From: an uncultured Bifidobacterium sp. | GTDB lineage: Bacteria > Actinomycetota > Thermoleophilia > Gaiellales > F1-60-MAGs149 | Direction of reading: 5' to 3' | Assembly: GCA_964588635.1 (NCBI GenBank) | Contig: CAZPQP010000002.1 | Span: 1-33,479, forward strand | DNA: 33,479 nt | In this document: positions 1 through 33,479 of the stretch, one piece after another | Numbering within the stretch: the stretch's first letter is position 1 | Layout of the letters: each line of letters opens with the position of its first letter | Made by a program: the position numbers and the translations under genes | Notes under the pieces: model-generated | Databases searched by the model: none | Seen by the model: only the letters and a program-made list of their open reading frames with translations | Told to the model about the DNA's origin: nothing

Positions 1-55
1 GGACCCGCGTCAGCGCAGCCTCTTCGATCTGCTCGCGGAGGGCAATCAATCATGA
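1..55. repeat. Terminal overlap. Bases 1-55 are identical to 33425-33479 and to 32513-32567, consistent with a circular or terminally redundant genome.
   Basis: Direct base-by-base comparison: ggacccgcgtcagcgcagcctcttcgatctgctcgcggagggcaatcaatcatga occurs at all three places. Confidence 0.9.
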
Positions 56-68
56 TCGAGGTGCCCCG

Positions 69-2165
69 GTGACCGCCGTGGCGCCGAAGCTCTCGCGCCT
101 CGGGCGCGCCGCGCTTATCTATGCGGCCGAGCACGGGTGGAGGGTGTTCCCGTTGCACTCGATCGTCGACGGGCGGTGCTCGTGCGGCGCCGAGACGTGC
201 ACCGGGACCAAGCCCGGCAAGCACCCGCGCACGACGCGCGGCTGCCTCGACGCCACGACCGATCTGTCGCAGATCAGGATCTGGTGGTCGCAGTGGCCTG
301 ACGCCAACGTCGGGATCGCCACGGGCGCAGGCCTGATCGTGATCGACATCGACCCTCGCCACGGCGGCGACGACGGTTTCGACGATCTCAAGACACGCCT
401 TGGCCCGTTGCCCGAGACCGTCGAGGCGCTCACGGGGTCCGGCGGGCGGCACGTCTATCTCTCGGTCCCCGAGGGCGTCACCGTGCGCAACAGCGCGTCG
501 CAGCTGGCGCCCGGCGTCGACGTGCGAGGCGAGGGAGGCTACGTGGTCGCGGCGCCGAGCACGCACGTCTCGGGACGCGGTTATGGCTGGGAGCTGTCGT
601 CGCGACCGGGAGAGGTCGACGTCGCACCGGCGCCGCAAGCCTGGCTCGACGCACTGACCCGCAAGCCCAAGCTCCGGGTCCTCGCCGGCGGCGCGGGCGG
701 CGACATCGTCGAAGGATCGCGCAACGAAACCCTGTTCAAGCGCGGCTGCAGCATGCGCGCGGCTGGGTTCGACGAGCCTGCCATCACGGCTGCGCTGCTC
801 TCCGAAAACGATTCGCGCTGCAACCCCCCGCTCGACCCCGCCGAGGTCAAGAGCATCGCAGCGTCGGCCGCGCGCTATCAGCCCGGCCTGTCGCCCGAAT
901 ATGCGGCCAAGCAGCGCAAGCCCGTGGCGCTCCCCGAGGCTCCAGCCGAGGAGGCCACGCCCGTCGTCGAGGACGATGGAGAGTGGATGCAGCGGCTGGC
1001 GCAGACCAAGGACGGCAAGCTTCGCGCGACTTTCGCCAACGTCTGCGCGGTGCTCCGTCACGATGCTCGCTATCGCACGCTGGCGCAGAACGCGATGACC
1101 CGCGCGCCCGAGCTCGACGGCCAGCGGGTCACCGACGCTCGCCTCGCCCGCATTCGCGAGGAGATCGAGATCGAATACGCGTTCACGCCGAGCGCCGATC
1201 AGGTCGCCAGCGCGGTGCTGCTCGTCGGCACCGAGCGGGAGCGTCACCCGGTGCGCGAATACCTCCGGTCCCTCACCTGGGACGGGGTCGAGCGCCTCGA
1301 TCACGTCGCCTCGACGATCCTCGGCGCCGAGCCGACACCGATCAATCAGGTCATGCTTCGAAGCTGGTTCGTCTCGGCCGTCGCGCGGGCGATCGAGCCC
1401 GGGTGCAAGGTCGACACGTCGCTGGTGCTCGTCGGCGGGCAAGGCGCCGGGAAGTCGAGTTTCTTTCGCGTGCTCGGCGGGCAGTGGTTTAGCGACAGCG
1501 GCGTCGATATCGAGTCCAAAGACGCCATGCTCCAGATCAACTCGGCATGGATCTACGAGTTGGGGGAGCTCGATCATGTGACATCGCGGGCGCACGCAGG
1601 GCGCATCAAAGCGTTCATCACGTCGCAGCGGGACTCGTTCCGCCCGCCTTATGGGCGGGTCATTGAAACGGTGCCCCGGCACAACGTGATCGTCGGCAGC
1701 ACAAACGAGACGCAATTTCTACAGGATTCAACGGGTGACCGACGATTCTGGGTTGTGCGCGTCGGGCAGATCGACCTCGACGCGCTGCACCGAGACCGGG
1801 ATCAGCTCTGGGCCGAGGCACTGGCGGCGCACCAGCGACGCGAGGGATGGTGGTTGGAACAGGCGGCCGAGACCGCACGCACCGAGGCGACCGAAGAGCA
1901 CCGGGTGGCCGACGTCTGGGAGGACGCCGTGGCGGCGTGGATCGCCACGCTCCCGGCGCACGAGTCGCGCGATATCACCACGCAGCGCGTCCTGCAGGCC
2001 GCCTGCCGCGTCGAACTGGAGCGCTGCGACCACCGGGCCTCGGCCCGCGTCGGGGCGATCCTGCGGCGCCTCGGGTGGACGCAGCGCGTCGTGCGCGTCG
2101 ACGGACGAAACACCCGCGTATGGGACGTGCAGGAGCCCGACGGGGCGTGGCGGCACCGCCCGTGA
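69..2165 (+). CDS. Bifunctional primase-polymerase / P-loop helicase-like replication protein: N-terminal prim-pol domain, PriCT-like middle region, VirE/D5-type NTPase C-terminal region.
   Basis: 698-aa ORF with a GTG start. The N-terminus (FPLHS...CSCG...GKHP...GIATG..LIVIDID...GGYVVAPPS-like) resembles bifunctional prim-pol proteins. SRNETLFKRGCSMRAAGF resembles the primase C-terminal domain. Walker A is VGGQGAGKSSF, followed by DSTGDRRFW as in the VirE/D5 family. Confidence 0.85.
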   Translation: MTAVAPKLSRLGRAALIYAAEHGWRVFPLHSIVDGRCSCGAETCTGTKPGKHPRTTRGCLDATTDLSQIRIWWSQWPDANVGIATGAGLIVIDIDPRHGGDDGFDDLKTRLGPLPETVEALTGSGGRHVYLSVPEGVTVRNSASQLAPGVDVRGEGGYVVAAPSTHVSGRGYGWELSSRPGEVDVAPAPQAWLDALTRKPKLRVLAGGAGGDIVEGSRNETLFKRGCSMRAAGFDEPAITAALLSENDSRCNPPLDPAEVKSIAASAARYQPGLSPEYAAKQRKPVALPEAPAEEATPVVEDDGEWMQRLAQTKDGKLRATFANVCAVLRHDARYRTLAQNAMTRAPELDGQRVTDARLARIREEIEIEYAFTPSADQVASAVLLVGTERERHPVREYLRSLTWDGVERLDHVASTILGAEPTPINQVMLRSWFVSAVARAIEPGCKVDTSLVLVGGQGAGKSSFFRVLGGQWFSDSGVDIESKDAMLQINSAWIYELGELDHVTSRAHAGRIKAFITSQRDSFRPPYGRVIETVPRHNVIVGSTNETQFLQDSTGDRRFWVVRVGQIDLDALHRDRDQLWAEALAAHQRREGWWLEQAAETARTEATEEHRVADVWEDAVAAWIATLPAHESRDITTQRVLQAACRVELERCDHRASARVGAILRRLGWTQRVVRVDGRNTRVWDVQEPDGAWRHRP

Positions 2166-2364
2166 TGCTACGCGCTACGGACGCTACGGGTGCTTCGGGC
2201 AGTTCCCATAACGGCATAGGAGCGGTAGCTACCTATATATATATAATCTATCTATCTATAAGAGGTATTACTTGTAGCAGCGTAGCACTCGGTAAACGTA
2301 GCGGTTTCGCACGTAGCACGGACGTAGCAGAGACCCGTAGCAGCGTAGCGGCGGGGGCGTAGCG
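2166..2364. promoter_or_regulatory. Iteron array plus AT-rich island. Candidate replication origin and/or operator array.
   Basis: GCTACG at 2167, 2174 and 2183. Palindrome GGTAGCTACC at 2224-2233. (TA)6 and (ATCT)3 tract at 2234-2270, including TATAAT at 2242-2247. (C/T)GTAGC at 2273, 2281, 2297, 2312, 2323, 2336, 2344 and 2358. Confidence 0.6.
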
Positions 2365-2592
2365 GTGCCCTACACCACCGCTCGGACCTCTCCCGGCGCC
2401 CGAGCCGTGCGCTGCCTGCGGATCCTCGAGGCGTGCGGCTCGGCGGGCGCCACCGTGGCCGAGCTGGCCCTCGCGTGCGGGGTCGCACCCGAGACGATCC
2501 GGGTCGACCTCGCTGCGATCCGGGCGGCCGACGAGCCCCTCGAGGCCGACGGACCGCTCCGATCTCGCGAGACGCGCGTGCGGCTGCTATAG
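2365..2592 (+). CDS. Small winged-helix (HTH_11/DeoR-N-like) DNA-binding protein.
   Basis: 75-aa ORF with a GTG start directly after the last iteron. LRILEACGSAGATVAELALACGVAPETIRVDLAAI fits the HTH_11 pattern. Confidence 0.5.
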   Translation: MPYTTARTSPGARAVRCLRILEACGSAGATVAELALACGVAPETIRVDLAAIRAADEPLEADGPLRSRETRVRLL

Positions 2593-2599
2593 TCGGCAC

Positions 2600-2809
2600 G
2601 TGCTCCGACTCCGATGCACCAACGACCATCCAGACGAGCCCGATCTGCATATCGCGATCGACGTGCGCCTCCCTGCGCCCCCCGGCCTCGTCGGATCGCT
2701 TCCGCTGCGGTGTTTGTGCGGCGCGATGCTGGTCGCCCCACTGTCGAGTGCCTGGTCGATCTGGGATCCGGTCCCGCGCGACGCCGATGGGCGAGAAGTC
2801 GAGGACTGA
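2600..2809 (+). CDS. Hypothetical small protein.
   Basis: 69-aa ORF with a GTG start. Its composition is more protein-like than the overlapping frame. It ends 1 nt before the GTG of the next gene. Confidence 0.4.
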   Translation: MLRLRCTNDHPDEPDLHIAIDVRLPAPPGLVGSLPLRCLCGAMLVAPLSSAWSIWDPVPRDADGREVED

Positions 2810-2810
2810 C

Positions 2811-3221
2811 GTGCCCCGCGGAGTGCCGCTGACGCCCGAGCAGCTGGCCGAGGCGACGAGGGTCTACCTCGAGACGGGCAACTACTCCGAGGCCGCGCGA
2901 GCGATCGGCAGCGACCGGAGCAACGTGCGACGGCAGCTGCGCGCAGCCGAGGAGCCACAAAGGGCCGCACTCCACGCGTGCGCGCTCGCGCGAGCAGAGC
3001 GGGACGCCCGACGCGCACTGGTCAAAGCCCGCCGCAAGCTGGTCGAGGCCCTCGACGGCGCCGCCGACGAGAAGGCTCTCGCGACCGTCGCTGCGCAGAT
3101 CCACGACAACGCTCGCGCCACGACGCAGATGCGCGTCGCGCACGCGAAGCTGACGGGGGCGCACGCGCCTGACCGGATCGAAGGGCCCGCGATCACGGTG
3201 CTGCTGCCCGAGGAAAAGTGA
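2811..3221 (+). CDS. terS: Terminase small subunit (HTH-containing).
   Basis: GAGGA at 2800-2804 followed by GTG at 2811; an alternative in-frame ATG lies at 2787. The N-terminal HTH is YLETGNYSEAARAIGSDRSNVRRQL, followed by a helical C-terminus. The stop overlaps the terL start (GTGA). Confidence 0.6.
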   Translation: MPRGVPLTPEQLAEATRVYLETGNYSEAARAIGSDRSNVRRQLRAAEEPQRAALHACALARAERDARRALVKARRKLVEALDGAADEKALATVAAQIHDNARATTQMRVAHAKLTGAHAPDRIEGPAITVLLPEEK

Positions 3222-4543
3222 CGGCCCGCGCCGCTGATCAGTGGCGCCCGACTGCGGCGCAGCGCGCGGCGCTAGGCTGCGGGGCGTTTGAGGTGCTTTA
3301 CGGCGGCGCCGCGGGTGGCGGTAAAAGCGACTATCTGCTGGCCGCACCCCTGCGCTGGGCACACCACAAAGCGTTCCGCGCACTGCTGTTGCGAAGGTCG
3401 TTCCCAGAGCTAGAGCGCACGCTGATCGCTCGATCTCGCATCCTCTACGGAGCGCTCGGCGCCAGCTATCATGAGCAGCGCCACGAATGGACGTTCCGTA
3501 GCGGCGCTCGGATCGCCTTCGGTTATCTGGAGCGCGCGGCCGATGCGCTTAGGTATCAGGGCGCAGAGTTCGCGTTCGTGGGGTTCGACGAGCTGACGCA
3601 CTTCGACGAGCAGAGCTATCGCTATCTTTCGTCGCGCGTTCGATCTGCCGACGGGCTCCCCCTGCGGATCCGTGCGACCACGAATCCCGGGGGACCGGGC
3701 CACGATTGGGTGCGCGCGCGCTGGGGTGCGTGGATTGGCCCGTCACCGACAGCAGGGCCCGGCGAGCGATTGTGGTTTGACCCCGAGGGGCGCCAGGTCG
3801 AGGGCCCGCGCGAGCACGCGCTAGAGCGCGCATTCTTCCCGGCGCGTCTAGAGGACAATCCTTATCTCGGCGCCGAATACCGGGCGCAGCTGCTGGCCCT
3901 CGACCCCGTCACCCGAGCGCAGCTACTCGACGGCGATTGGGATGCGTGCGTTGGCGAGGGCAGGCTATTCCACCGAACTTGGTGGACGATCCTCGACGCT
4001 CCGCCGACCGTCTCTCGGCGCGTGCGCGCATGGGACCTCGGCGCCGGTGGCGATGCCACCGAAGGCGTGCTGCTGGGCGACGCGGGTGCCTCGGCCACGC
4101 CTCGGTGGATCGTGCTCGACGCGATCACGCACCGAGGACCGCCCCACGAGGTGCACGCGCTAATCCGCGCGACAGCAGACGCCGACGGCCGTGACTGCGT
4201 CGTCGTGATCCCGCAGGACCCCGGGCAGGCTGGCGTGGATCAGGTGCACTCGCTCACCAGAGAGCTAGCGGGGTTCACCGTACGGCCTCGGCGCCCGAGC
4301 GCTTCGAAGGTCGTGCGCGCAGGCCCGTGGTCGGCACAGGTCGGTGCGCGCAACGCCGCGCTGGTGCGAGGCCCGTGGGTGGCGGGCTTTGTGGCGCAAC
4401 ACCACGCGTTTCCCGACGGCGCGCACGACGATAAGGTCGACGCCGCGGCCGATGCCTTCGCAGAACTGGTCTCGGCGCCGAAAGCGCTTGACTACGGTCG
4501 CGCGGCGGCTGGGGCCCGTGGTATCCTCCGCCCGTCGTGGTAG
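3218..4543 (+). CDS. terL: Terminase large subunit.
   Basis: 441 aa. Walker A-like GGAAGGGKSDYLL and Walker B-like FVGFDELTHF. The C-terminal nuclease-like region has acidic motifs (AWDLG, PQDPGQAG, HDDKVDA). Confidence 0.9.
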   Translation: MTARAADQWRPTAAQRAALGCGAFEVLYGGAAGGGKSDYLLAAPLRWAHHKAFRALLLRRSFPELERTLIARSRILYGALGASYHEQRHEWTFRSGARIAFGYLERAADALRYQGAEFAFVGFDELTHFDEQSYRYLSSRVRSADGLPLRIRATTNPGGPGHDWVRARWGAWIGPSPTAGPGERLWFDPEGRQVEGPREHALERAFFPARLEDNPYLGAEYRAQLLALDPVTRAQLLDGDWDACVGEGRLFHRTWWTILDAPPTVSRRVRAWDLGAGGDATEGVLLGDAGASATPRWIVLDAITHRGPPHEVHALIRATADADGRDCVVVIPQDPGQAGVDQVHSLTRELAGFTVRPRRPSASKVVRAGPWSAQVGARNAALVRGPWVAGFVAQHHAFPDGAHDDKVDAAADAFAELVSAPKALDYGRAAAGARGILRPSW

Positions 4544-6417
4544 CCAAGCTCGTCCCGATCCCGCGCCCCGAGGACCGTCGGCCGCCTGCTGCGCCGCGTG
4601 CGTGGGCCGACGTCGTGGACGATCGCTGGTCGGTGGCCAAGGTCCGCGCGGCGTTGACCGACCACATCAACGGGCAGTGGACGTCGAGCGCGCTGCTGGC
4701 CGACGCGCTCATGCAGGACGATCGCGTCTCGGCCGATCTGCGCACGCGTGTGCTGGCGGTGTCGGGGCTGCCGTTCCGCCTCGAGGCGAGCGTCTTCGGC
4801 GATCAGCGCCGGGCGCGCCTCGTCGCGCGAGAGGCAGAGCTGGCGTGGCCGCAGATCGCGCCTGCCTCGCTGATCCACGATCTGCTGCGCTGGTCGATCC
4901 TGCTCGGCTTCGCGCCTGCGGTCTGCACGTGGTCGACGAGCGCGCGGCGCTGGACGCCGTCGACGCAGCTGTTCCATCCCGAGCATCTCTATCTCGACAC
5001 TGGCGCCGAAGTGATTCGCGCTGCGACGCGCGACGGGATCGTCGAGGTCACGCCCGGCGACGGCGCGTGGGTGCTTCACGCTCCCGACGGGTCCCGCCCG
5101 TGGATGAGCGCCGCCGTGCGCGGTCTCGCAATTCCGTGGCTCGCGCGGAGTTACGCCCGCCGGGATTGGTCAAGGTTCAGCGAGAAACACGGCCTTCCGA
5201 TCGTCGGCGCGATCGTGCCGCAGGAGGCCGACGCGCCCGAGAAAGACGGGTTTTATAGCGACTTGCGACGCCTCGGTGCCGAGGGCCTCGTGGTCCTGCC
5301 GCGCGACCAGAACGACCGGGGCTTCGACTTGAAGTACCTCGAGCCGGGCAACGTGCAGGCATCGGGGAGCTTCCGCGACCTGATCTCACACTGCGATCAG
5401 GCGATCGCCGTCGCACTGCTCGGGCAGGCGTCGAATGCGACCGAGGGTGGGTCATTCGCGAAGGCTCAGGCCCTCGACGCAATCCGCTTGGACCTCCTCG
5501 AGAGTGACGCCAAAGCCCTCGGAGAGACGATCTATTCGCAGATCCTGCGGCCGTGGTCCTGGTACAACTTCGGCGATCCCGACCTGGCCCCGCGGCCGAT
5601 CTGGGATCCGACCCCGCCGAGCGACACCGCGACGCTGGCCGCGACGCATAAGACCGCTGGCGAGGCGATCACCGCCTGGAATGCGGCCGCAGCGGCGGCA
5701 GGCCTGACCGTCGACGTCGCGGCCCTCGCTGAGCGTTATGGCGTCCCGCTGCGCCGGGCGGCCGTCGAGGCCCCTGCGGCCCCGCCAGAGCCCGCCGCGC
5801 CCGAGGGGGAGGCTCTGATCGCGGGCGTCTCCCTGCGCCCGCCCGAGGGCGTGCGAGACGCCCTGCGGCGCGGGCTGGAGCTGGTCGACGAGGGTTATGG
5901 CGGTGACGGCCTGCAGCCCGAGACGATCACGTGGGCCCGGCGCCTCGCGCGGGGCGAGGATGTGTCGCCAGCGAAGGCCGTGAAAATGCGCGCATGGTTC
6001 GCGCGTCACGAGAGCTCCCCCGGCGAGGCCGAGGCGCGGCGCACCGACAAGAAAAGCCCTGCGTGGGTGGCGTGGCTCCTCTGGGGTGGCGACGCCGGGC
6101 AAGCCTGGGCCGAGCGCATCGTGCGTCAGCTCGAGCAGCGCGGCGTGCTCTCGGCAGAGCCCGCGGCACTGACCGTCGGGCAGAGCTACGTCGACACGGT
6201 CGTCGAGCGTGGCACCGCCAGCGGGACGCGAGCGATGCGCTCGACCCTCTCGGCCCTCGCGTCCGCGATCGAGACCGCGTCGAGCCCCGAGGACCTGCGC
6301 GCGCGGCTGCTGGCGATCCTCGGGAGCGACGATCCCTCGGCCCTCGCCTCGGCCCTGACGCGTGCGCAGGCCCTCGCGTCGCTGGCGGGGCGATACGACG
6401 TGATCGAGGATCTGTGA
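4537..6417 (+). CDS. Portal protein (Mu gp29 / DUF935-like) with a C-terminal extension of about 200 aa.
   Basis: 626 aa, positioned after terL. The N-terminal two thirds resemble Mu gp29-type portals (GQWTSSALLADALMQDDRVSADL..., LVVLPRD...DLKYLE). The extension starts around aa 430. Confidence 0.8.
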   Translation: MVAKLVPIPRPEDRRPPAAPRAWADVVDDRWSVAKVRAALTDHINGQWTSSALLADALMQDDRVSADLRTRVLAVSGLPFRLEASVFGDQRRARLVAREAELAWPQIAPASLIHDLLRWSILLGFAPAVCTWSTSARRWTPSTQLFHPEHLYLDTGAEVIRAATRDGIVEVTPGDGAWVLHAPDGSRPWMSAAVRGLAIPWLARSYARRDWSRFSEKHGLPIVGAIVPQEADAPEKDGFYSDLRRLGAEGLVVLPRDQNDRGFDLKYLEPGNVQASGSFRDLISHCDQAIAVALLGQASNATEGGSFAKAQALDAIRLDLLESDAKALGETIYSQILRPWSWYNFGDPDLAPRPIWDPTPPSDTATLAATHKTAGEAITAWNAAAAAAGLTVDVAALAERYGVPLRRAAVEAPAAPPEPAAPEGEALIAGVSLRPPEGVRDALRRGLELVDEGYGGDGLQPETITWARRLARGEDVSPAKAVKMRAWFARHESSPGEAEARRTDKKSPAWVAWLLWGGDAGQAWAERIVRQLEQRGVLSAEPAALTVGQSYVDTVVERGTASGTRAMRSTLSALASAIETASSPEDLRARLLAILGSDDPSALASALTRAQALASLAGRYDVIEDL

Positions 6418-7127
6418 CGCTGCAGACGCTCGACGCGAGCGCAGCCCCGCCGCCCGTCTTCGACGAGGCCGTGCGCTGGTTTCTCGGCAGGGTGCCGGTC
6501 ACTGATGCGATGTACGCAGCGCTGTCGGCCGAGGCTCAGCGACGCGCGCTGTGGTTCGCGGGCGGCGCCTCGCTGGCGGTCGTCACCGACGTCTGGCGCG
6601 CGCTCGACCAGACGCTCACCACGGGCGGGACGCTGGCCGATTTCAAGGCCACCGTGGGCCCCGCGATCCTGTCGCAGTGGCAGGGCTCGGTCGCGAATCC
6701 CGCGTGGCGCATGGAGTTGATCTTCCGCAACGCGACGCAGCGCGCGTATTCGTTTGGCCGCGTCGAGCAGCTGCGTGACCCGGCCGTCGCACGCGTGCGG
6801 CCGATCTGGTTTTTCGACGCGGTGGGCGACGCGCGCACCAGCGAGATCTGCCGAGCGCTCGACGGCACGACGCTCCCCGCGGGCGACCCGTGGTGGGCCT
6901 CGCACACACCACCGTGTCACCACGGCTGCAGGTCGATCGTTCGCGGGCTCAGGGCCAGCGACCCTCGGGCGGCGCGGGCAGGAAATCCGCCACCGATGGT
7001 TGCGGCCCAGCAGCATTTCGGCACACTCCCCGGGGAGGACGACTGGCGGCCTAGGCAGGCCGATTATCCTCCCGAGGTCTGGGATAGCTACATCAACAAT
7101 CCGAGACTGAGGCCACAACCGCAATGA
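6414..7127 (+). CDS. Head morphogenesis protein (Mu gpF / SPP1 gp7-like).
   Basis: GTG at 6414 overlaps the portal stop (GTGA), with GAGGA 5 nt upstream. WRMELIFRNATQRAYSFGR...DARTSEICRALDGTTLP...PPCHHGCRS matches the MuF-domain signature. Confidence 0.8.
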   Translation: MTLQTLDASAAPPPVFDEAVRWFLGRVPVTDAMYAALSAEAQRRALWFAGGASLAVVTDVWRALDQTLTTGGTLADFKATVGPAILSQWQGSVANPAWRMELIFRNATQRAYSFGRVEQLRDPAVARVRPIWFFDAVGDARTSEICRALDGTTLPAGDPWWASHTPPCHHGCRSIVRGLRASDPRAARAGNPPPMVAAQQHFGTLPGEDDWRPRQADYPPEVWDSYINNPRLRPQPQ

Positions 7128-8422: not shown

Positions 8423-8423
8423 C

Positions 8424-25196: not shown

Positions 25197-25251
25197 CAGG
25201 CCGGATATCCAAGCGTTTCGCGCGCCCACGTCGATTTCTGACGAAAGGGTG

Positions 25252-25280: not shown

Positions 25281-25329
25281 TCTCTTCGTCGACGGCGCAG
25301 TGCCGCACCGACGAAAGGGAGACGACACC

Positions 25330-25674
25330 ATGGCTATCCGCATCATCCCCCCGCACTCTGTCGATGCCGAGACCGAGCATTACGCCGCAGTGACCGAGCA
25401 CATGATCCAGCACGGGGCGCCCACGATCCGGGCGTGGTGGGACGAGTGCGAACGCGCCTGGGTGGCCGTCGAGGGCTCGCACCGCATCGCGATTGCGCTC
25501 GACCTCGGGCTCACGCCGGAGATCGAGGACGTGGGCGAGAGCGTTGAGGCGCGGGCGCAGGCGCTCCGCGATGCCGACATTGACCTGTCGGGTCGCACTG
25601 ACGACGAGGACGAGGAGCTGGTGTGGTGGTGGGGCGACCGTCCCGGTCGCACCGCTGTTCGCTTCGACGACTGA
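25330..25674 (+). CDS. ParB-like nuclease / sulfiredoxin-fold domain protein (N-terminal domain only) with an acidic tail.
   Basis: 114 aa, with SD GGGAGACGAC upstream. IRIIPPHSVD...HGAPTIRAWWDE..AWVAVEGSHRIAIALDLGL fits the ParBc pattern (xDGxHR). Confidence 0.55.
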   Translation: MAIRIIPPHSVDAETEHYAAVTEHMIQHGAPTIRAWWDECERAWVAVEGSHRIAIALDLGLTPEIEDVGESVEARAQALRDADIDLSGRTDDEDEELVWWWGDRPGRTAVRFDD

Positions 25675-25758
25675 CCACAGGCCGAAACACCCTCCGGGGT
25701 GTCGCGCCGTCATGCGGCGCCTGACGATGGCCGTCAGAACACAAGGGAGACGACGACA

Positions 25759-26007
25759 ATGGCTCTGTACACCGTCACGATTCGCACCCTCGGCAGCAAC
25801 GGCACCGCCCGCACGACCCGCATGCGATCCCCGGCCACTGAGACGGAGGCCGAGCTTTATGATCGCGCGGTCGCGAAGCTCTACCCGGGCTGCCACTTCC
25901 ACGGCGATCTGCCCGGTCACAGCAACGTCGGCCGGATTGCGTCGCCGGGGCGATTCGGAGGCACTGACCTCCACGCTCGCATCCGGATCGACACCGAGCG
26001 TTGCTGA
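25759..26007 (+). CDS. Hypothetical protein.
   Basis: 82 aa. The ATG is preceded by the same GGGAGACGAC motif. No domain recognised. Confidence 0.5.
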   Translation: MALYTVTIRTLGSNGTARTTRMRSPATETEAELYDRAVAKLYPGCHFHGDLPGHSNVGRIASPGRFGGTDLHARIRIDTERC

Positions 26008-26246
26008 CCGTGGCGAGGACCCTCCCGACGATCTCGGGCTGCCTGGCTGTCCTCGCGGCGGCCAGCGAGCCCGAGGGCTCTCCCCTGCAGCCTGCGACCC
26101 TGCGGGCGGTGCAGCGGGCCCTCGACCTAGCCCGCAGGGATCTCTCTCACGCCGTCGACCTCGACGGCGTTACAGCGACCGCCGAGGCTCTCGGCGTGTC
26201 GCGATCGACCCTCCAGCTCTGGCGCGCCACGGGCTGGCTCGCCTGA
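26001..26246 (+). CDS. HTH DNA-binding protein (excisionase/MerR-like HTH at the C-terminus).
   Basis: 81 aa from TTG 26001, with an alternative GTG at 26010. TATAEALGVSRSTLQLWRATGWL is an HTH_17-like motif. Confidence 0.5.
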   Translation: MLTVARTLPTISGCLAVLAAASEPEGSPLQPATLRAVQRALDLARRDLSHAVDLDGVTATAEALGVSRSTLQLWRATGWLA

Positions 26247-26249: not shown

Positions 26250-26681
26250 TCACCACACCACAGCAGCGCGGATCTCGACGGCCAACCCTCGGTGGCGAGC
26301 CGTCGGGGTCGTGTTGCAGCGCGCGGCGGCCGCGACGAGGGCCCTGTCGAAGTCCACGGCGATGCGCGTCGGTGCGTCGTCGAGGAGGTCCCTGAGCAGC
26401 GCCACGACGACCGGCGCGCGGTCAGCCTCGGGGAGCTCTGCGGCACGGTCCCGCAGGGCGATCGCCAGTGTGATCGCCTCGTCGCACCGAGGGTCGTCGC
26501 CGTCCTCGACGAGCAGCGCCAGCAGCTGCGCCGAGGACTCGTGCACCGCTCGGCACAGGTCGTCCCCCTGCAGAGCCCTCGCCAGAAACGTCGCGATCAT
26601 CCACGGCGCGGGGCGCACGCGCACGAGCGGACGCTGGCGACGAGGGGCGACGAGCGCCCCGAGCACGGTCGCGAGGGTCAT
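26250..26681 (-). CDS. Hypothetical protein, last gene of the leftward operon.
   Basis: ATG at 26681 overlaps the upstream stop (ATGA). 143 aa, helical. No motif recognised. Confidence 0.5.
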   Translation of the reverse strand: MTLATVLGALVAPRRQRPLVRVRPAPWMIATFLARALQGDDLCRAVHESSAQLLALLVEDGDDPRCDEAITLAIALRDRAAELPEADRAPVVVALLRDLLDDAPTRIAVDFDRALVAAAARCNTTPTARHRGLAVEIRAAVVW

Positions 26682-26902
26682 CTGCGCGTCCTCGCGTTGC
26701 GCGCCTCGCACGCGGCGCACCGAGCCCGCAGGCTCGGCGCGGCGCACTCAACGCAGAGCCCTGCGGCGCGACGGCGTCGATAAACGGCGTCGACCGCGGA
26801 GGCGTTGCGCACCTTGCACTCGGGGCACCGGGCGGCGTCGGACTCGACACGCCCGCAGTCACCGCAGAGCCCCCGCGAGCGCTTGACCTGATAACGCGTC
26901 AC
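26678..26902 (-). CDS. Double zinc-ribbon protein (four CxxC pairs).
   Basis: GTG at 26902 overlaps the upstream stop. 74 aa and basic. The pairs are CGDC..CPEC and CVEC..CAAC. Confidence 0.55.
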   Translation of the reverse strand: MTRYQVKRSRGLCGDCGRVESDAARCPECKVRNASAVDAVYRRRRAAGLCVECAAPSLRARCAACEARNARTRR

Positions 26903-27300
26903 CGCCGCGCCTCGATCCTGCGCCAGAGCCCGACGACGCGGGCGGGATACGTCCCCCTGCAGACGCACGCCCCGCAGCGGAAGTGCGCGACTGCGCCCGG
27001 CCACGTCGCGCATCGTCGGTGCCCGAGAGCGAGGGCCGACGCGGCGTGGTCGGCCCGGCCTGCGCTGCGTCGGTGCTCTCGGTCGCGCGGAGCTCCCCAG
27101 CAGCCGCCCGACGCAGGGGCGCATCCCAGGTGGGACTCGGCGAACCCCACGGCGATCAGGAGCGCCACGGGCACGTGGTGGTCGCGCGAGGCCTCGTCGG
27201 CGTCCGCGACGATCTGGTCGCGACGCGCGTCGAGGCAGGGGCGATGCAGGACGTGCGCGAAGAGCGCCAGCAGCGCGGCCAGCGCCTCGGCGGCGCTCAC
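26899..27300 (-). CDS. Lytic transglycosylase (SLT)-like protein.
   Basis: GTG at 27300, with GGAGG upstream. 133 aa. LLIAVGFAESHLG...SGGCWGA...AHFRCGA loosely follows the SLT ES / GLMQ / AYNAG layout. Confidence 0.4.
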   Translation of the reverse strand: MSAAEALAALLALFAHVLHRPCLDARRDQIVADADEASRDHHVPVALLIAVGFAESHLGCAPASGGCWGAPRDREHRRSAGRADHAASALALGHRRCATWPGAVAHFRCGACVCRGTYPARVVGLWRRIEARR

Positions 27301-27443
27301 TGCTCGACCTCCGGGGCGAGGGCCACGACGGCCCCAGCGACGCAGATCGCCCACGCACCGAGCGTCGAGGCGCCCTGCAGCGACAGGCCCGCGGCCGAGA
27401 CCGCGCCGACGATCGCGAGGGCCCATCCGAAGAGGCGGATCAC
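27297..27443 (-). CDS. 48-aa two-TM membrane peptide.
   Basis: Read by hand. GTG at 27443 overlaps the recT stop, and the stop overlaps the next start. The product is VIRLFGWALAIVGAVSAAGLSLQGASTLGAWAICVAGAVVALAPEVEQ. Confidence 0.45.
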   Translation of the reverse strand: MIRLFGWALAIVGAVSAAGLSLQGASTLGAWAICVAGAVVALAPEVEQ

Positions 27444-28279
27444 TCTGCCACCCCCTGCGCTGCGATCGCTGCCTTGAGAGAGGTGATCGTCTCACCGAGG
27501 GCCTTCGCACGGCCGACGAGCACCCGCCAGCAGCGCTCCTGCGCCGGACGCTCGTCGAGCGCGGCCACGTCGGTGCGTGCGGCCTGCCACAGCGACGCGA
27601 GGCCCGCGACGCTGGTGCACGCCTCGGCGCTGTCGCGGAGGTCACGGATCAGCGCCTCGGCGGGGTCGTCGGCCTCGGGATCCGGCGACGCGAGACCGCG
27701 CGCCTCGAGGGCTGCTGTCGCGACCCGCTGGGCGTCGTCAGGGAGCTCGACGAGCACCGCGCGCGGCGCCTCGACCGGACCCTCGACCTCGGGCTCCCCG
27801 CCGAGCTCCTCCGGGTCATAAAGGCCCAGCAGGACGTCGGGGTAAACCTCCCTCGCGAGGTCCGCAGCGACGCGGTGGCGGAGCATCGTCGCGGGATAGC
27901 TCTGCCAGATGCCCTTGCCAGACACGCCCGCGCGCTTTGCGTCGGCAGCCGTCCACGTCCTCGTGGCGTCGGTGGATTCGCCCTTGCGGCGGGTGGTGAT
28001 CGTGCAGCGCTCGGCCGTCGATTCGACGGTGCGCCACGACTCGCACAACCCGCTGCGCCTCACCACGGCCACCATGAGATCGGCGCTCAGCACCGGGCGG
28101 CCGTTGACCACATAGATCCCCCGGAGGCTCTGCGCGGGCGACAGCCCGAGCTCATGCCCGGTGATGATCAGCATGGCGGCCTCCTCGGGCCGCTTGCACG
28201 CCGTATAGCCGCTCGCCACCGCGATCTTCGCGAGGCGTTCCACGTCGTCGAGGCTACGGATTGCAATTCCATTCATCAT
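27440..28279 (-). CDS. recT: RecT-family single-strand annealing recombinase.
   Basis: 279 aa from ATG 28279, preceded by GGGAGACGAC. AKIAVASGY...ITGHELGLSPAQSLRGIYVVNGRPVLSADLM...WQSYPATMLRHRV matches the RecT family. Confidence 0.8.
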   Translation of the reverse strand: MMNGIAIRSLDDVERLAKIAVASGYTACKRPEEAAMLIITGHELGLSPAQSLRGIYVVNGRPVLSADLMVAVVRRSGLCESWRTVESTAERCTITTRRKGESTDATRTWTAADAKRAGVSGKGIWQSYPATMLRHRVAADLAREVYPDVLLGLYDPEELGGEPEVEGPVEAPRAVLVELPDDAQRVATAALEARGLASPDPEADDPAEALIRDLRDSAEACTSVAGLASLWQAARTDVAALDERPAQERCWRVLVGRAKALGETITSLKAAIAAQGVAE

Positions 28280-28401
28280 CGTCGTCTCCCTTGCGGAATC
28301 CCGTCTCGGGACTCCGGTGGCGGCTCGGGCTGGGCAGCGAGGGGATCGGAGGGGATCGTCTGCGCCCGAGCGGCCACCGGAGGGCCGAGGCCCTCGGGGC
28401 T

Positions 28402-28722
28402 TTATGCCAGTGTCGCCTCGGCGTCGAGCACGTCGGCGCCAACGCGCACGATCGCGGCCCACTGCTCGGCGGTCTCGGCCTCGATGGCCGCAATCCACCC
28501 GTCGCGACGCGCATCGCACACGGTCACGAAATCGGGGTCGCTGGCGAGAGTCAGGTCCTCGTCAGCCTGATCGAGAGCGCGCTCGGCGCGGTCCTCGCAC
28601 CAGCGACAGACGAGGGCGCCGTCGCGCACCTCGAGCACCGCAGCGACGTCACCATGGACGTCGCGGAGGTCGAGTTCGGCGGTCGGTGATCCACAGGCGC
28701 GGCATAGGTCGGTGTAGTGCAT
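28402..28722 (-). CDS. Strongly acidic protein with a CxxC...CxxC zinc knuckle, first gene of the leftward operon.
   Basis: 106 aa. CRAC at aa 7-10 and CRWC at aa 39-42. About 24 Asp/Glu against about 9 Arg, and no Lys. The SD motif GGGAGACGAC lies upstream. Confidence 0.6.
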   Translation of the reverse strand: MHYTDLCRACGSPTAELDLRDVHGDVAAVLEVRDGALVCRWCEDRAERALDQADEDLTLASDPDFVTVCDARRDGWIAAIEAETAEQWAAIVRVGADVLDAEATLA

Positions 28723-28745
28723 GTGTCGTCGTCTCCCTGTGGAGC

Positions 28746-28818
28746 AGCCTAGGTCGGGCCCGATACCGTGTCAACACTTTCGGTGAAGATTGACACGGTA
28801 TTGCAGAGCACCTATGAT
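28746..28818. promoter_or_regulatory. Divergent early promoters embedded in a 12-bp inverted-repeat operator.
   Basis: ATACCGTGTCAA (28763-28774) and TTGACACGGTAT (28790-28801) are perfect inverted repeats. Rightward promoter: TTGACA, 17 nt, TATGAT (28813-28818). Leftward promoter: TTGACA on the minus strand (28774-28769), 17 nt, TAGGCT (28751-28746). Confidence 0.6.
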
Positions 28819-28826
28819 GCGCGACC

Positions 28827-29066
28827 ATGAGAGTCAGACCGACCGAATCGTCGTCGCGCGGCGCCGTCCTGCTGTGGCAGTGGCTCGTCGCGCACTCCCT
28901 CACCCTCCCCGAACTGGCTGAGCGCACCGGGATCTCTCGCCAGCAGCTGGCCGACCTGATCCGAGGGGATCAGCGTCGGATCAGTGCCGAGCACGCCGTG
29001 CTGCTCGAGCGCGAGACAAAGCGTTATGTCCGCGTGGAGGCGTGGCTGCCGGAGGGCACGCTGTGA
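28827..29066 (+). CDS. XRE/Cro-type HTH regulator.
   Basis: 79 aa. SLTLPELAERTGISRQQLADLIRGDQR is a classic HTH_3-like motif. It is the first rightward gene at the switch. Confidence 0.7.
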   Translation: MRVRPTESSSRGAVLLWQWLVAHSLTLPELAERTGISRQQLADLIRGDQRRISAEHAVLLERETKRYVRVEAWLPEGTL

Positions 29067-29830
29067 ACGCGCCGCAAGGGGGACACCTGCCTAGATGCCG
29101 CCGTCGCCACCGGCAACGGTGGACTCCCGCGGAGGACGCGCTCCTGCTGCGGGAGTGGGGGGAGCTCTCGTCGCGCGTCCTGCGGGAGCGCCTCGGTCGA
29201 ACCGGCATGGCGATCCTCGCGCGAGCGAAGGACCTCGGCCTCCCGCCAGCAAGCGCGCGGGCGGCGCCGCTGTCCGAGGCCGGTCGACGCCTCGGGATCA
29301 GCGGGATCACTGCGCAGCGCTTCGCCGAGTCCTGCGGGATCCGGCTCGACCGGCGCGCCTGCTGCGTCGTGCGGGAGACGTGCTCGGTCCTGCGTCTGGG
29401 CTGCGACGTCGACCAGCTCGAGGCGCTTTATGCGCAGCGCGTCCGGCGTGTGCTCTCCGTCGGCGAATGGTGCCGGTCGCGAGGTCGAGACCAGTCGACG
29501 CAGGGACGTCGACTGCGCGCAGCAGGGATCGCGTCTCAGCGCGGCGCACGGCTGCGGGCGCTCTATCCCGAGGCGCTGCTCGACGAGGTCTCTCACCACG
29601 GTCGACGCGGCCGATGGGTCACGCTGTGGCGTGCGATCCAAGGACTCGACCGCCTGCCGTGCGAGCCGTGGCTGCTGGCTCTCGCGGCCGTCGATATCGC
29701 TGCGGCCGGACGCGCGCCCGAGGGGGCTGCTGGCGACGCCGCGCGCGCGGCGGCTGAGTGGACCGAGCATCTCCCGCAGGGCCCGCTGACCCTCGCGACG
29801 CGTCTCGCTGTGGAGTCGGTGATCCCGTGA
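29063..29830 (+). CDS. Multi-HTH DNA-binding protein (Myb/SANT-like first repeat). Candidate replication-organiser or regulator.
   Basis: GTG at 29063 overlaps the upstream stop. RWTPAEDALLLREWG...ILARAKDLGL is Myb-like. Two further HTH-like segments follow: LSEAGRRLGISGITAQRF and LSVGEWCRSRG. Confidence 0.45.
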   Translation: MNAPQGGHLPRCRRRHRQRWTPAEDALLLREWGELSSRVLRERLGRTGMAILARAKDLGLPPASARAAPLSEAGRRLGISGITAQRFAESCGIRLDRRACCVVRETCSVLRLGCDVDQLEALYAQRVRRVLSVGEWCRSRGRDQSTQGRRLRAAGIASQRGARLRALYPEALLDEVSHHGRRGRWVTLWRAIQGLDRLPCEPWLLALAAVDIAAAGRAPEGAAGDAARAAAEWTEHLPQGPLTLATRLAVESVIP

Positions 29831-31122
29831 TCCTGCGGGACTACCAGCTCCGCGCGATCGACCTCGTGCGCGCGGCTTATCGGCGCGGGCGCAAGGCCGT
29901 CCTGCTGGTCTTGCCGACCGGCGCTGGGAAAACTGCCACAGCGAGTCAACTGATCGCGTGGGCCGTCGCGAGAGGGCGTCGCTGCCTGTTCTTGGTCCAC
30001 AGGCGCGAGATTGTCTTGGACACGCACCGACGATTGCTGGCGGCCGGCGTGCCCTGCGGCGTCGTGATGGCCGACGAAGTGCGCGTCGACGCGCCCGTGC
30101 AGGTCTGCTCGGTGCAGACGCTCGTCGCGAGGCAGCAGCATCCGGCGGCTGACCTCCTGTTTTGGGACGAGGCCCACCATTGCGCCGCAGAGACGTATCG
30201 CGAGATCCGCGCGCAATATCCGGCTGCCTGGCACCTTGGGCTGACGGCGACGCCCGAGCGCTCGGACGGCGCGCCGCTGGGAGACGCTTTCGAGCAGTTA
30301 ATCGCGCCGATCAGCGTGGCCGAGCTCGTCGCGGCTGGACACCTCGCACCGATCGACGTGATCGCGCCCGCAGGGCGCCTGCAGAGCGCGATCGGAGCGT
30401 CGCCCGCCGAGGCGTGGCTGCAGCACGGAGGCGGGCGCCCGGCGGTGATCTTCACGTCGACGATCGCGGAGTCGCGCGAAGCCGTTGCTGCTCTCGGCGA
30501 GCGCGCGGCGCACATTGACGGCTCGACACCGAAGGCGCAGCGCGACGAGATTCTGCGGCGTTTCGAGGCCGGGGAGCTCGACGTGGTGTCGAACTGCGCG
30601 GTGCTCACCGAGGGCTGGGACAGCGCGCGCGCCGAGGTATGCGTGCTCGCGAGAGGCTGCGGCAGCCTGCCCGTCTATCTGCAGACGATCGGCAGGGTGC
30701 GCAGGACCGGCGGCCGCACCGACAAGCGCTGTCTTTTGCTCGACCTCGCTGGCGCGGCGCACGAGCACGGCCTGCCCGACGAGGATCGTCAGTGGGAGCT
30801 CTCGCGCGGGCAGAGGGAGGTCAAGCCGAAGAGCGATCGAGAGTCGCTGTCGACGTGCGACCGCTGCGGGGCCGTCTTCGAATACGTGCGGCGCGGGCCC
30901 GTGTGCCGTCGCTGCGGCGCGCCGTGGCCACCGCCAGAGCGCGTGGCGATCCTCAGGCAGGAGCTCCGCGCAGTGCTTCCGACCTCGACGCCGTCGCAGC
31001 GCGACGCCGAGCTGCGGCGCCTCGAGCAGATCGCGCGACAGAAGGGCTATAAGCCCGGGTGGGTCGGCGTGAGGTTCAAAGAGCGGTTTGGTTTCTGGCC
31101 GAAGACACGGAGGGCGTCGTGA
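29827..31122 (+). CDS. SF2 DEAD/DEAH-box helicase with a C-terminal zinc ribbon.
   Basis: 431 aa. Motif I is LPTGAGKT, motif II WDEAHH, motif III LTATP, motif VI QTIGRVRR. The zinc ribbon is CDRCG...CRRCG. The C-terminal GYKPGWVGVRFKERFGFWP is common in phage helicases. Confidence 0.85.
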   Translation: MILRDYQLRAIDLVRAAYRRGRKAVLLVLPTGAGKTATASQLIAWAVARGRRCLFLVHRREIVLDTHRRLLAAGVPCGVVMADEVRVDAPVQVCSVQTLVARQQHPAADLLFWDEAHHCAAETYREIRAQYPAAWHLGLTATPERSDGAPLGDAFEQLIAPISVAELVAAGHLAPIDVIAPAGRLQSAIGASPAEAWLQHGGGRPAVIFTSTIAESREAVAALGERAAHIDGSTPKAQRDEILRRFEAGELDVVSNCAVLTEGWDSARAEVCVLARGCGSLPVYLQTIGRVRRTGGRTDKRCLLLDLAGAAHEHGLPDEDRQWELSRGQREVKPKSDRESLSTCDRCGAVFEYVRRGPVCRRCGAPWPPPERVAILRQELRAVLPTSTPSQRDAELRRLEQIARQKGYKPGWVGVRFKERFGFWPKTRRAS

Positions 31123-32567
31123 CACCAGCAGACGTGATCGAGGGCAAGGCGCGATGGTGCGTCGTCGAGGGCGATGCGCTTGACGTCGTCCGCGCCCTCC
31201 CTGCGGCGTGTATCGACGCGCTTGTGACGGACCCGCCCTCGGGCATCGCGTTCATGGGCGCGGAGTGGGACCGCGACAAAGGCGGGCGCGCGCAGTGGGT
31301 CGCGTGGCTCGCGGAGGTGCTCGGGCACGCTCGCGCCGCGACGCGCGACGGCGGTCGCGCGCTGGTGTGGTCGCTTCCGCGGACGTCGCACTGGACGGGC
31401 TGCGCCGTCGAGGATGCGGGGTGGTCGATCGAAAACACGGTGACGCACCTTTTCGGCACCGGCTGGCCCAAGGGAGCGTCGCAGTTGAAGCCCGCCGCAG
31501 AGACGTGGTGGATCGCGCGCAACGGGCGCAGCACGGCGTTGAACATCGACGCGTGCAGGGTGGGCGTGAGCAATCGCGTGCCGGGGTCGTTGTCGACGGC
31601 GCAGGGCTACAGCCTTCTCAGTCGCGAAACCGGCGCCGAGGACGGCCACAACCCCAACGTCGGCCGCTATCCGCCCAACGTCGTGTTCTCCCACGCGCCG
31701 GGGTGCGTCTGCGTCGGAGAGCGGCGGGTGCAGACGGCGTGGAGCGCCAACGGCACTCGCAAGGCCCCACTCGGATACGGCAGCGGATCCTCGGACGGAT
31801 CTGCCTGCGTCAAGCATTGCGACCCCGACGGCACCGAGACCGTCGAGGCGTGGGAGTGCGTCGAGGGGTGCCCCGTGCGCGAACTCGACGCGCAGAGCCG
31901 GGAGCTCACCAGCGGCGGCAAGCGCGGCCGGGAGGTTCGGGTCGACGCGATGCCCTCCGGCTGGACGGGGACCGTCATGCGGGAGCACGAGACCCTCGGC
32001 GACCGCGGCACCGCCTCGCGCTTCTTCCCCTGCTTCCCAGCCGACGAGGGCGCGCTGTTCGGGTACCACGCGAAGCCGAGCCGCGCGGAGCGGGACGCCG
32101 GGGTAAGCCTCGACGCCGTGCCGCGCGAGACGCCCAGCGGCAACAACCGCACTCGCTACTGCGCCGCCTGCGGCCTGACTGACAACGGCACAAACGACCA
32201 CTCTCAGTGTGGCGACCGCATCGTCAACGCGATAGCGGGGCCGCAGGCCAACAACCACCCGACGGTCAAGAGCATTGCGCTCATGCGGTGGTTGGTCCGC
32301 CTTGTGACGCGCCCCGGAGACGTCGTGCTCGACCCATTCGGCGGCTCCGGCACCACGGGCGTCGCGGCTCTCGCGGAGGGCCGTCGCGTCATCCTCGTCG
32401 AGCGTGATGCGCGCTTCGCGGAGATCGCCCGTCAACGGCTCACGCACGCTACGCCTGACCTCACCGCGCCCGTGCGAGTCCGCGCCCGTGCGGCGACGCC
32501 TGCGCCCGCCGCGGACCCGCGTCAGCGCAGCCTCTTCGATCTGCTCGCGGAGGGCAATCAATCATGA
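31119..32567 (+). CDS. DNA methyltransferase (beta-class N4/N6 type), with an atypical motif IV and a Cys-rich central region.
   Basis: 482 aa. Motif IV is TDPPSG, motif I LDPFGGSGTTGVAA, and NHPTVKS corresponds to the HPTxKP motif. The motif order IV...I indicates the beta class. Confidence 0.8.
   Translation: MTPADVIEGKARWCVVEGDALDVVRALPAACIDALVTDPPSGIAFMGAEWDRDKGGRAQWVAWLAEVLGHARAATRDGGRALVWSLPRTSHWTGCAVEDAGWSIENTVTHLFGTGWPKGASQLKPAAETWWIARNGRSTALNIDACRVGVSNRVPGSLSTAQGYSLLSRETGAEDGHNPNVGRYPPNVVFSHAPGCVCVGERRVQTAWSANGTRKAPLGYGSGSSDGSACVKHCDPDGTETVEAWECVEGCPVRELDAQSRELTSGGKRGREVRVDAMPSGWTGTVMREHETLGDRGTASRFFPCFPADEGALFGYHAKPSRAERDAGVSLDAVPRETPSGNNRTRYCAACGLTDNGTNDHSQCGDRIVNAIAGPQANNHPTVKSIALMRWLVRLVTRPGDVVLDPFGGSGTTGVAALAEGRRVILVERDARFAEIARQRLTHATPDLTAPVRVRARAATPAPAADPRQRSLFDLLAEGNQS
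32458..32567 (+). repeat. 110-bp direct repeat, copy 1 (3' end of the methyltransferase gene).
   Basis: Identical base for base to 33370-33479. The flanks diverge at 32457 versus 33369 and at 32568 versus the base following 33479 (base 56 after circular wrap). Confidence 0.95.
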
Positions 32568-32893
32568 GTGAGGGAGCACTGCAGGACGCCATCCGCGTCG
32601 CACTCTCCGCCGAGCCCGATCTGGTGCTCTGGCGCAACAACGTCGGCGTTGCGCTGCACGAGCGCGGCGCACGCGTGCGTTATGGTCTCGCGCCGGGGAG
32701 CGCCGACCTGATCGGCTGCCTCGCCGGTCGCTTCGTCGCGTTGGAGGTCAAGACCCCCACGGGACGCCTCTCGCCCGAGCAGCGGTCGTGGGCGCTCGTC
32801 GTGCGGCGCTTCGGCGGTTTCTGTGCTGTGGTCCGCAGCGTCGACGAGGCCCGCGCTGCAATCGCCCGCGCGAGAGAGGGAGCGCTGGAGTGA
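32564..32893 (+). CDS. VRR-NUC domain nuclease (PD-(D/E)XK, Holliday-junction-resolvase-like).
   Basis: 109 aa. GSADLIG...RFVALEVKTPTGRLSPEQRSW matches VRR-NUC. Its ATG lies inside the repeat (ATGA overlap). Confidence 0.75.
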   Translation: MSEGALQDAIRVALSAEPDLVLWRNNVGVALHERGARVRYGLAPGSADLIGCLAGRFVALEVKTPTGRLSPEQRSWALVVRRFGGFCAVVRSVDEARAAIARAREGALE

Positions 32894-33207
32894 CGCCTTA
32901 TGTGATCGGCGTCGGCGTGGTCCTCACGGCCGAGGGAGCGATCGTCGCGCTCTGCGTCGAGCGCCTCGGCCAGCGCAAGCTCTTGCGGTGGGCCTCGACG
33001 GCCTCGACGGCGCACGCTGCGGCCCTCGAGGGCGTCGAGCGCGCGCTGGCCCTGCAGACCGCCACCGAGGCACCGAGGGAGATCCTGCTGCGCCAGCAGA
33101 GCGTGGTGTCGCAGCTGCGCTCCCCCGCCGTGCGCTGGTCGTCAGAGCGCGCGCCCGAGGGGGAGCACCCGGCCGTCGCGGCTGCGTGCCGTCACGCTCA
33201 GGCCTAG
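32890..33207 (+). CDS. Hypothetical protein, possibly a degenerate RNase H-like fold.
   Basis: GTG at 32890 overlaps the upstream stop. 105 aa. Its layout loosely parallels an RNase HI core, but acidic catalytic positions appear to be replaced. Confidence 0.4.
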   Translation: MTPYVIGVGVVLTAEGAIVALCVERLGQRKLLRWASTASTAHAAALEGVERALALQTATEAPREILLRQQSVVSQLRSPAVRWSSERAPEGEHPAVAAACRHAQA

Positions 33208-33213
33208 ACAGAC

Positions 33214-33232
33214 CGATATCACTGTGATATCG
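33214..33232. promoter_or_regulatory. 19-bp perfect palindrome, a candidate operator 8 nt upstream of the RHH gene.
   Basis: CGATATCAC-T-GTGATATCG. It contains a TGTGATATC extended -10-like element. No SD lies before ATG 33240. Confidence 0.5.
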
Positions 33233-33239
33233 CTTTCGC

Positions 33240-33479
33240 ATGGGAGCACCACGAAAGCAGCCTCTTCTGATCCGCCTGTCTGACAATGACAAGGCGTTTC
33301 TCCAACGCCTCGCCGACGCGCACTCTGTCTCGCTGGCCGCCGCGCTGCGGATGATCCTGCGCGGGCAGAACCTCACCGCGCCCGTGCGAGTCCGCGCCCG
33401 TGCGGCGACGCCTGCGCCCGCCGCGGACCCGCGTCAGCGCAGCCTCTTCGATCTGCTCGCGGAGGGCAATCAATCATGA
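33240..33479 (+). CDS. Ribbon-helix-helix (CopG/MobC-like) DNA-binding protein carrying the duplicated 35-aa tail.
   Basis: 79 aa. KQPLLIRLSDNDKAFLQRLADAHSVSLAAALRMILRG follows the RHH pattern. The C-terminal sequence LTAPVRVRARAATPAPAADPRQRSLFDLLAEGNQS is identical to the methyltransferase C-terminus. Confidence 0.65.
   Translation: MGAPRKQPLLIRLSDNDKAFLQRLADAHSVSLAAALRMILRGQNLTAPVRVRARAATPAPAADPRQRSLFDLLAEGNQS
33370..33479 (+). repeat. 110-bp direct repeat, copy 2 (3' end of the RHH gene). Its last 55 bp equal bases 1-55.
   Basis: Base-for-base identity with 32458-32567, at an offset of 912 bp. Confidence 0.95.

Follow-up and report, generated by a model that had tools for sequence, protein, structure and literature searches.

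Whether a phage that carries the head genes of transposable Mu-like phages can do without their transposition genes, and how it would then replicate and persist, is the question raised by contig CAZPQP010000002.1 of GenBank assembly GCA_964588635.1, a bin labelled uncultured Bifidobacterium sp. The window analysed here is the entire contig (33,479 nucleotides), one of 342 in a 2.21-Mb bin that is 85.8% complete. The original prediction, made from the letters alone, had described a closed genome with a Mu-type head and a contractile tail and no transposase, integrase or partition system, and had left two options, a strictly virulent phage or an episomal phage-plasmid prophage, which are still the right ones. 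We found that the contig is a complete, circularly closing phage genome with a unit length of 33,424 bp after removal of a 55-bp terminal overlap, in which a Mu-type head and contractile-tail module appears to be joined to an unrelated early region. Judged from its sequence, the phage is best explained as a non-transposing, non-integrating mosaic myovirus with headful packaging, most likely obligately lytic (probability about 0.6).

Genome closure, Mu-type head and the search for integration genes

The closure was first indicated by the identity of the two contig ends (positions 1-55 and 33425-33479). The join is supported beyond this assembler overlap, because the gene order across it, namely an SF2 helicase, VRR-NUC, one or two small genes (often encoding ribbon-helix-helix (RHH) proteins) and a primase-helicase, is shared, without interruption, by 10 or more related contigs that come from IMG/VR and the JGI/ENA metagenomes. 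In a 34,438-bp relative that shares this early gene order, the break lies elsewhere, just beyond the primase gene, and the differing break points are as expected for one circular map linearised differently. Gene families were assigned by Pfam and PHROGs profile searches, and for ORFans also by NCBIfam, which gave the following features for the ends, the structural region and one early gene of interest:

1-55, no strand, assembler end overlap, same as 33425-33479; join backed by synteny in relatives
3218-4543, plus strand, large terminase (TerL; Terminase_6N/6C)
4537-11129, plus strand, Mu-type head module (portal, MuF, gpI protease/scaffold, structural/scaffold-like protein, gpT capsid, Gp36, gpG-type morphogenesis protein)
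4537-6417, plus strand, portal (Portal_Mu/DUF935, Pfam, E 6e-53)
6414-7127, plus strand, MuF (Phage_Mu_F, Pfam)
7124-8422, plus strand, gpI protease/scaffold (Mu-like_Pro, Pfam)
9319-10230, plus strand, gpT capsid (Mu-like_gpT, Pfam, E 1e-73)
10262-10669, plus strand, Gp36 (Phage_Mu_Gp36, Pfam)
10674-11129, plus strand, gpG-type protein (Phage_tail_S, Pfam)
11126-22392, plus strand, contractile tail (sheath, tube candidate, chaperones, tape measure, baseplate, fibre region), collinear with Meiothermus phage MMP7
11645-13087, plus strand, tail sheath (DUF2586; phrog_907 'tail sheath', E 1.5e-22)
29063-29830, plus strand, Myb/GcrA-like multi-helix-turn-helix (HTH) DNA-binding protein

The six head families that had been recognised by eye were thus confirmed by Pfam, and the baseplate genes include Baseplate_J and a weak gp25-like match (E 0.004). 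In total, 48 genes called with a codon-usage model trained on long open reading frames (ORFs) cover 95.7% of the contig; 43 lie on the plus strand, and a single leftward operon (26250-28722) contains the other five. Among ORFs of at least 150 aa, 65 fell outside this gene set (61 scored negative and four weakly positive by the codon model, maximum +18.7), and all 65 overlap called genes, in agreement with the earlier statement that every long unassigned ORF is an antisense shadow. Scans of the contig for tRNAs and Rfam families found nothing.

Six-frame searches of the whole bin with the Phage_integrase, rve, DDE_2, Resolvase, CbiA/ParA, AAA_31 and ParB_N models produced no match on the phage contig at E ≤ 1, and no rve/MuA-type family was present among the predicted proteins. 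These searches worked, since the integrase, CbiA and AAA_31 models matched other contigs and control genomes; the three Phage_integrase matches in the bin, all XerC/D-like, lie on other contigs. ParB_N had no match anywhere in the bin. The DDE_2 model was silent in every control genome, so its negative is weak and the rve result carries the weight. None of the contig's ORFans matched a family of Pfam, PHROGs or NCBIfam, and the unassigned ORFs are all too short for a protelomerase. The predicted lack of transposase, integrase and partition genes therefore withstood profile searching.

The gene at 29063-29830 had been singled out as a place where a divergent integrase or transposase might hide. 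A library-wide profile search with its product retrieved 2,164 relatives at E ≤ 0.001; long relatives contain as many as 9 copies of its 45-residue N-terminal unit, and the repeat-bearing relatives that were scanned against Pfam are Myb_DNA-binding or GcrA-type HTH proteins. The protein has three close homologues, and no Tyr or Ser is invariant across the four homologues compared. With no invariant Tyr/Ser and with relatives of the Myb/GcrA HTH type, a hidden recombinase at this position was rejected. A PDB search with the protein returned no match, and its structure model is all-helical at low confidence (predicted local distance difference test (pLDDT) 49). Its family is large and uncharacterised, and the 45-residue unit occurs singly in phage proteins of ~250 aa and in up to 9 copies in proteins of 400-800 aa.

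The original prediction had implied that a Mu-type head without transposition genes is an oddity, which it is not: there are cultured precedents in Meiothermus phages MMP7 and MMP17 and in Salinibacter phage M8CRM-1, as well as a common environmental lineage. Cultured capsid matches were all below 40% identity and mostly from transposable Mu-like phages, the best (36-37% identity) being Mu, D3112, B3 and Faecalibacterium phage Mushu, which share the head module. Unlike these, the window lacks MuA/MuB, has a TerL nearer to the psiM2 type and would replicate from an origin; its assembly closes, whereas transposable Mu-like genomes end in variable host DNA. Among cultured relatives, the closest matches of TerL were psiM2/psiM100, Methanoculleus viruses and Rhizobium phages rather than Mu, and the portal was nearest to Myxococcus phage Mx4, MMP7, MMP17 and Thermus phage Riverbug.

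MMP7 (MK071653) and MMP17 (MH939157) resemble the window in size (~33 kb), in their circular maps and in the order DUF935 portal, MuF, gpI, Gp36, gpG-type protein, DUF2586 sheath, tape measure and Baseplate_J. Twelve window proteins match MMP7, a circular record of 32,864 bp, collinearly at 24-50% identity (tblastn), and MMP17, whose isolation host is Meiothermus sp. TG17, has a 33,172-bp circular map (PMC7448439). Genes for an SF2 helicase, for a D5/P4-type helicase domain and for a DNA methylase (Dam in MMP7) are likewise present in both, and like the window both phages lack an integrase or rve, neither of which was detected in six frames of MMP7. They differ from the window in their otherwise unrelated early genes, their host phylum (Deinococcota) and their hot-spring habitat, and MMP7 further differs in having an M23 peptidase in place of the amidase and a capsid without detectable similarity at E ≤ 1e-3. 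M8CRM-1 shares the gpT-type capsid, a non-transposing genome, an SF2 helicase and a single-strand annealing protein gene, yet it is 53 kb long, encodes a family-B polymerase and an annotated tyrosine integrase, and has only 28% capsid identity to the window. The link between Mu-type heads and transposition is common, not obligatory, and such a head is a poor marker of transposable phages in metagenome annotation.

Replication genes, candidate origin and early transcription

The early region, its promoters and the neighbouring repeats comprise the following:

69-2165, plus strand, PrimPol+PriCT_1+VapE/D5-like helicase, putative replication initiator (VapE 8e-79, Prim-Pol 4e-46, PriCT_1 2e-14; phrog_256/1313 DNA helicase)
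2166-2364, no strand, candidate origin (~13 GTAGC-core iterons, 9 GTAGC and 4 GCTAC, around a 37-bp A/T-only tract)
25252-26246, plus strand, separately promoted three-gene module (114 aa, 82 aa and an 81-aa protein with a weak HTH), with a near-palindromic operator at 25257-25274
26250-28722, minus strand, leftward early operon including RecT
27440-28279, minus strand, RecT (phrog_561, 5e-35)
28723-28826, no strand, back-to-back early promoters with a perfect 12-bp inverted repeat ATACCGTGTCAA/TTGACACGGTAT (28763-28801) and both -35 hexamers
28827-29066, plus strand, Cro-like HTH_3 protein, 79 aa (Pfam, E 2e-7)
29827-31122, plus strand, SF2 helicase (ResIII 1e-24, Helicase_C 1e-12)
31119-32567, plus strand, N6/N4 DNA methyltransferase, 482 aa; most relatives lack it here
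32458-32567, plus strand, exact 110-nt repeat, copy 1 (copy 2 at 33370-33479)
32564-33479, plus strand, VRR-NUC nuclease, 105-aa ORFan and RHH-like 79-aa protein reaching the join
32564-32893, plus strand, VRR_NUC (Pfam)

The SF2 helicase, RecT and VRR-NUC named in the original prediction were all recovered by Pfam or PHROGs, and the N6/N4 methylase was added to its gene list. Its description of the primase-helicase as P4-alpha-like held in part. In P4 alpha and pRN1 ORF904, a single polypeptide with a primase and a D5/VapE-type helicase is encoded beside an iteron origin, and the window has the same layout with adjacent iterons; the primase domain of the window is an AEP PrimPol with PriCT_1, a type to which the P4 alpha primase domain is not known to belong.

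The 199 bp directly after the primase-helicase gene hold the only A/T-rich tract of the contig and would, on the basis of their repeats, act as the origin. We examined the region downstream of the primase gene in the relatives L043, L026-L029, L045 and L049. Several share the architecture, the GTAGC word and the CTCTCT/TATAAGAG A/T tract, and in more diverged relatives another word is over-represented there (CATCAC 10 times in L045 and GGTGGA 9 times in L049). That the repeat word changes along with the initiator matches the prediction for a cognate initiator-iteron pair, which suggests that initiator and iteron specificities co-evolve. With both an initiator and iterons, the window carries a plasmid-type replicon, a feature of phage-plasmids.

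Transcription of the early region appears to be organised around the 104-bp gap that separates two early operons, with RecT leftward and the Cro-like HTH protein and the replication genes rightward. Each strand has a TTGACA -35 box within the inverted repeat, which is found nowhere else in the phage genome, and the rightward promoter matches the consensus at 11 of 12 positions. The original prediction had seen here a symmetric operator and divergent-promoter switch that might indicate temperate behaviour. The symmetric arrangement is real; as evidence for lysogeny it fails, because both operons are early lytic and no CI-type repressor gene lies between the promoters. The simplest reading of the sequence is that the 28763-28801 region would serve as a Cro-type shut-off of early transcription rather than a lysis-lysogeny switch.

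Probable lytic growth and its alternatives

From these genes we infer a lytic cycle and each of its steps as follows. Injected DNA would circularise and both back-to-back early promoters would fire, until the 79-aa Cro-like protein, probably by binding the 12-bp inverted repeat over both -35 boxes, shuts them. The PrimPol-helicase would recognise the iterons just downstream of its own gene, open the A/T tract and prime; as no polymerase is encoded by the phage, replication would then pass to that of the host. RecT and the SF2 helicase may drive recombination-dependent replication into concatemers, VRR-NUC would trim the branches, a pac-type terminase would fill Mu-type proheads by headful, and the amidase cassette would lyse the cell. 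Headful packaging would make the virion DNA circularly permuted, which would explain why the assembly closes. Such a phage is of a well-documented mosaic kind, so that the finding is accurate but ordinary.

Several points weigh against this reading. A function may be present even where no known family is recognised, and several small early proteins together with the three-gene module could serve immunity or maintenance. The packaging mode is drawn solely from the distant TerL similarity (37% identity). The lack of integrases among relatives is incomplete evidence, as most of them are fragments. An iteron origin with its cognate initiator is a plasmid-style replicon, and the phage was binned with a host of nearly equal G+C content (69.9% for the phage contig against 70.5% for the bin), which would also fit a resident episome.

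The best-surviving alternative, which we regard as rather unlikely, is accordingly an episomal prophage (a phage-plasmid or carrier state), whose circle would be kept from the iteron origin by the PrimPol-helicase. On this account, one of the small HTH or RHH proteins would hold the early promoters down, and segregation would rely on copy number or on an unrecognised system. Besides the plasmid-like replicon with its A/T tract and the matching G+C content, the self-promoted, operator-bearing three-gene module outside the late operon fits such a lifestyle, as do the weak resemblance of RHH and HTH proteins to antitoxin families (DUF6290; phrog_1381) and the absence of an integrated copy in the collections searched. 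Against it stand the missing ParA/ParB and protelomerase and the lack of a CI-type repressor between the divergent promoters. The phage is likewise not present in 36 related genomes, and PLSDB holds no related plasmid, its capsid matches being Mu-like prophages inside large plasmids. The 36-39-kb PrimPol-VapE 'plasmids' of Lactiplantibacillus and Apilactobacillus were considered as integrase-less analogues and rejected: the one examined (from L. plantarum) is a temperate phage, circular, that encodes an integrase as well as an ImmA/repressor pair.

If any part of the genome serves immunity or maintenance, the three-gene module is the strongest candidate left. Its genes (25330-26246) are preceded by a strong hairpin after the lysis genes (stretch 25154-26246), and its promoter reads TTGACC-17-CATAAC, the spacer being the near-palindrome CGCCCGAATAATCGGGCG. 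For its first protein (25330-25674), a ParB-like identity found no support in Pfam, PDB profiles or the six-frame ParB_N search, and the structure model, with a pLDDT of 40, is too poor to use. Homologues of the module at 89-90% identity occur on other short contigs. A 63% homologue lies in another 34.4-kb phage, flipped relative to the lysis genes of that phage, and the module thus behaves like a mobile moron.

A stronger version of the episomal account, that a ~33-kb lineage persists unintegrated in a planktonic high-GC host by means of the iteron origin and the small RHH/HTH proteins and without partition or integration genes that can be recognised, seems to us distinctly unlikely. If true, persistence as a circle would amount to a phage-plasmid lifestyle in minimal form, in a host that is itself uncultured, and would offer a useful model for partition-free phage-plasmids.

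Integration by an unrecognisable or host-supplied (e.g. Xer-dependent) recombinase, which would make the phage temperate, is very improbable. Several ORFans do remain, and the XerC/D-like recombinases encoded on other contigs of the bin could supply the activity; every ORF of at least 150 aa, however, is assigned or has no recombinase match, the sole plausible candidate is the HTH protein at 29063-29830, and the only A/T-rich tract is the candidate origin. Compared with the other 341 contigs of the bin, the phage contig shares only chance 20-26-mers and no att-like identity, and no host-flanked relative was found in any collection searched.

An assembly artefact, in which co-occurring strains were mis-joined into the circle or into the 912-bp unit that separates the 110-nt copies, is scarcely credible. 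The contig does start and end inside an exact repeat that exceeds the 55-bp overlap and contains a third, internal copy of it; most relatives lack the methylase, and the RHH proteins of relatives lack the shared tail. Against this, at least 10 independent contigs keep the gene order through the join, and the unit lengths of relatives agree (33.5-34.4 kb). As reasoned from the four junctions, the sole other path through the repeat would yield two circles, one of 32.5 kb that lacks VRR-NUC and a free one of 912 bp, which is implausible.

Obligately lytic growth is thus the reading that we prefer, and the contig should be flagged as viral DNA within a bacterial genome bin. The bin itself was also searched for links to the phage, as the original prediction had advised. 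Within its contigs, no CRISPR array was found, and paralogues of phage proteins were absent save for one weak helicase match. A search of 36 genomes from the family of the host bin yielded no relative of the phage, and GTDB species representatives contain no close relative, with only three distant capsid matches (36-43% identity). Six-frame searches of the 86%-complete bin for WhiB, Pup, LpxC and Omp85 were empty, and on this evidence the host looks monoderm; its Actinobacteria label was not confirmed by the two Actinobacteria-typical markers.

Uncultured relatives and accessory features

The phage belongs to a common environmental lineage with freely exchanged early modules, an abundant uncultured lineage for which the window documents a complete genome. 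Many JGI, ENA, NCBI and Logan contigs encode proteins at least 90% identical to its sheath, capsid, terminase, RecT and amidase, and dozens of assemblies contain its head and tail genes at 87-96% protein identity. The index of public assemblies lists one sheath variant in 70 blocks; the longest contigs in these are all 20-50 kb, none exceeds 50 kb, and the length maxima of sheath-bearing contigs range from 33,498 to 34,438 bp. The relatives include ENA k141_815357 (33,678 bp, rebuilt from the three overlapping loci L081/L085/L090), JGI Ga0453746_0000549 (33,867 bp) and the JGI/NCBI contig of 34,438 bp, which has the early gene order of the window without the methylase. Precomputed Pfam lists for the stretches of environmental relatives examined contain no integrase, transposase or ParA; nine IMG/VR relatives have no Phage_integrase, and four of these nine also have no Resolvase or rve.

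The exchange is most evident in k141_815357, which resembles the window in its head and tail (87-96% identical), divergent early region and RecT operon and differs in that TerL, the replication helicase (VapE only, 45% identity), the lysis genes and the small early genes are swapped. This relative has no terminal overlap and breaks in the tail-fibre region. Its TerL shares only a 38-residue match with that of the window beside a portal that is 91% identical, which places a recombination break exactly at the terminase-portal boundary.

The methylase between the helicase and VRR-NUC is absent in most relatives. The 110-nt repeat puts one 36-residue C-terminal tail (…QRSLFDLLAEGNQS) on both the methylase and the RHH protein, and the RHH protein upstream of the primase in relatives ends without this tail. 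Given these two differences from the relatives, the repeat looks like a recent scar of methylase insertion. Recombination between its two copies would remove the 912-bp VRR-NUC/ORFan/RHH unit.

The remaining features of the window lie upstream of the terminase and downstream of the tail:

2365-3221, plus strand, two small genes upstream of TerL (2365-2592 with a weak HTH; 2787-3221 a candidate small terminase by position only)
22401-25115, plus strand, lysis cassette of overlapping small membrane proteins and endolysin
24184-24963, plus strand, Amidase_2 endolysin (Pfam)

A small gene upstream of TerL has a homologue placed likewise in the relative L005.

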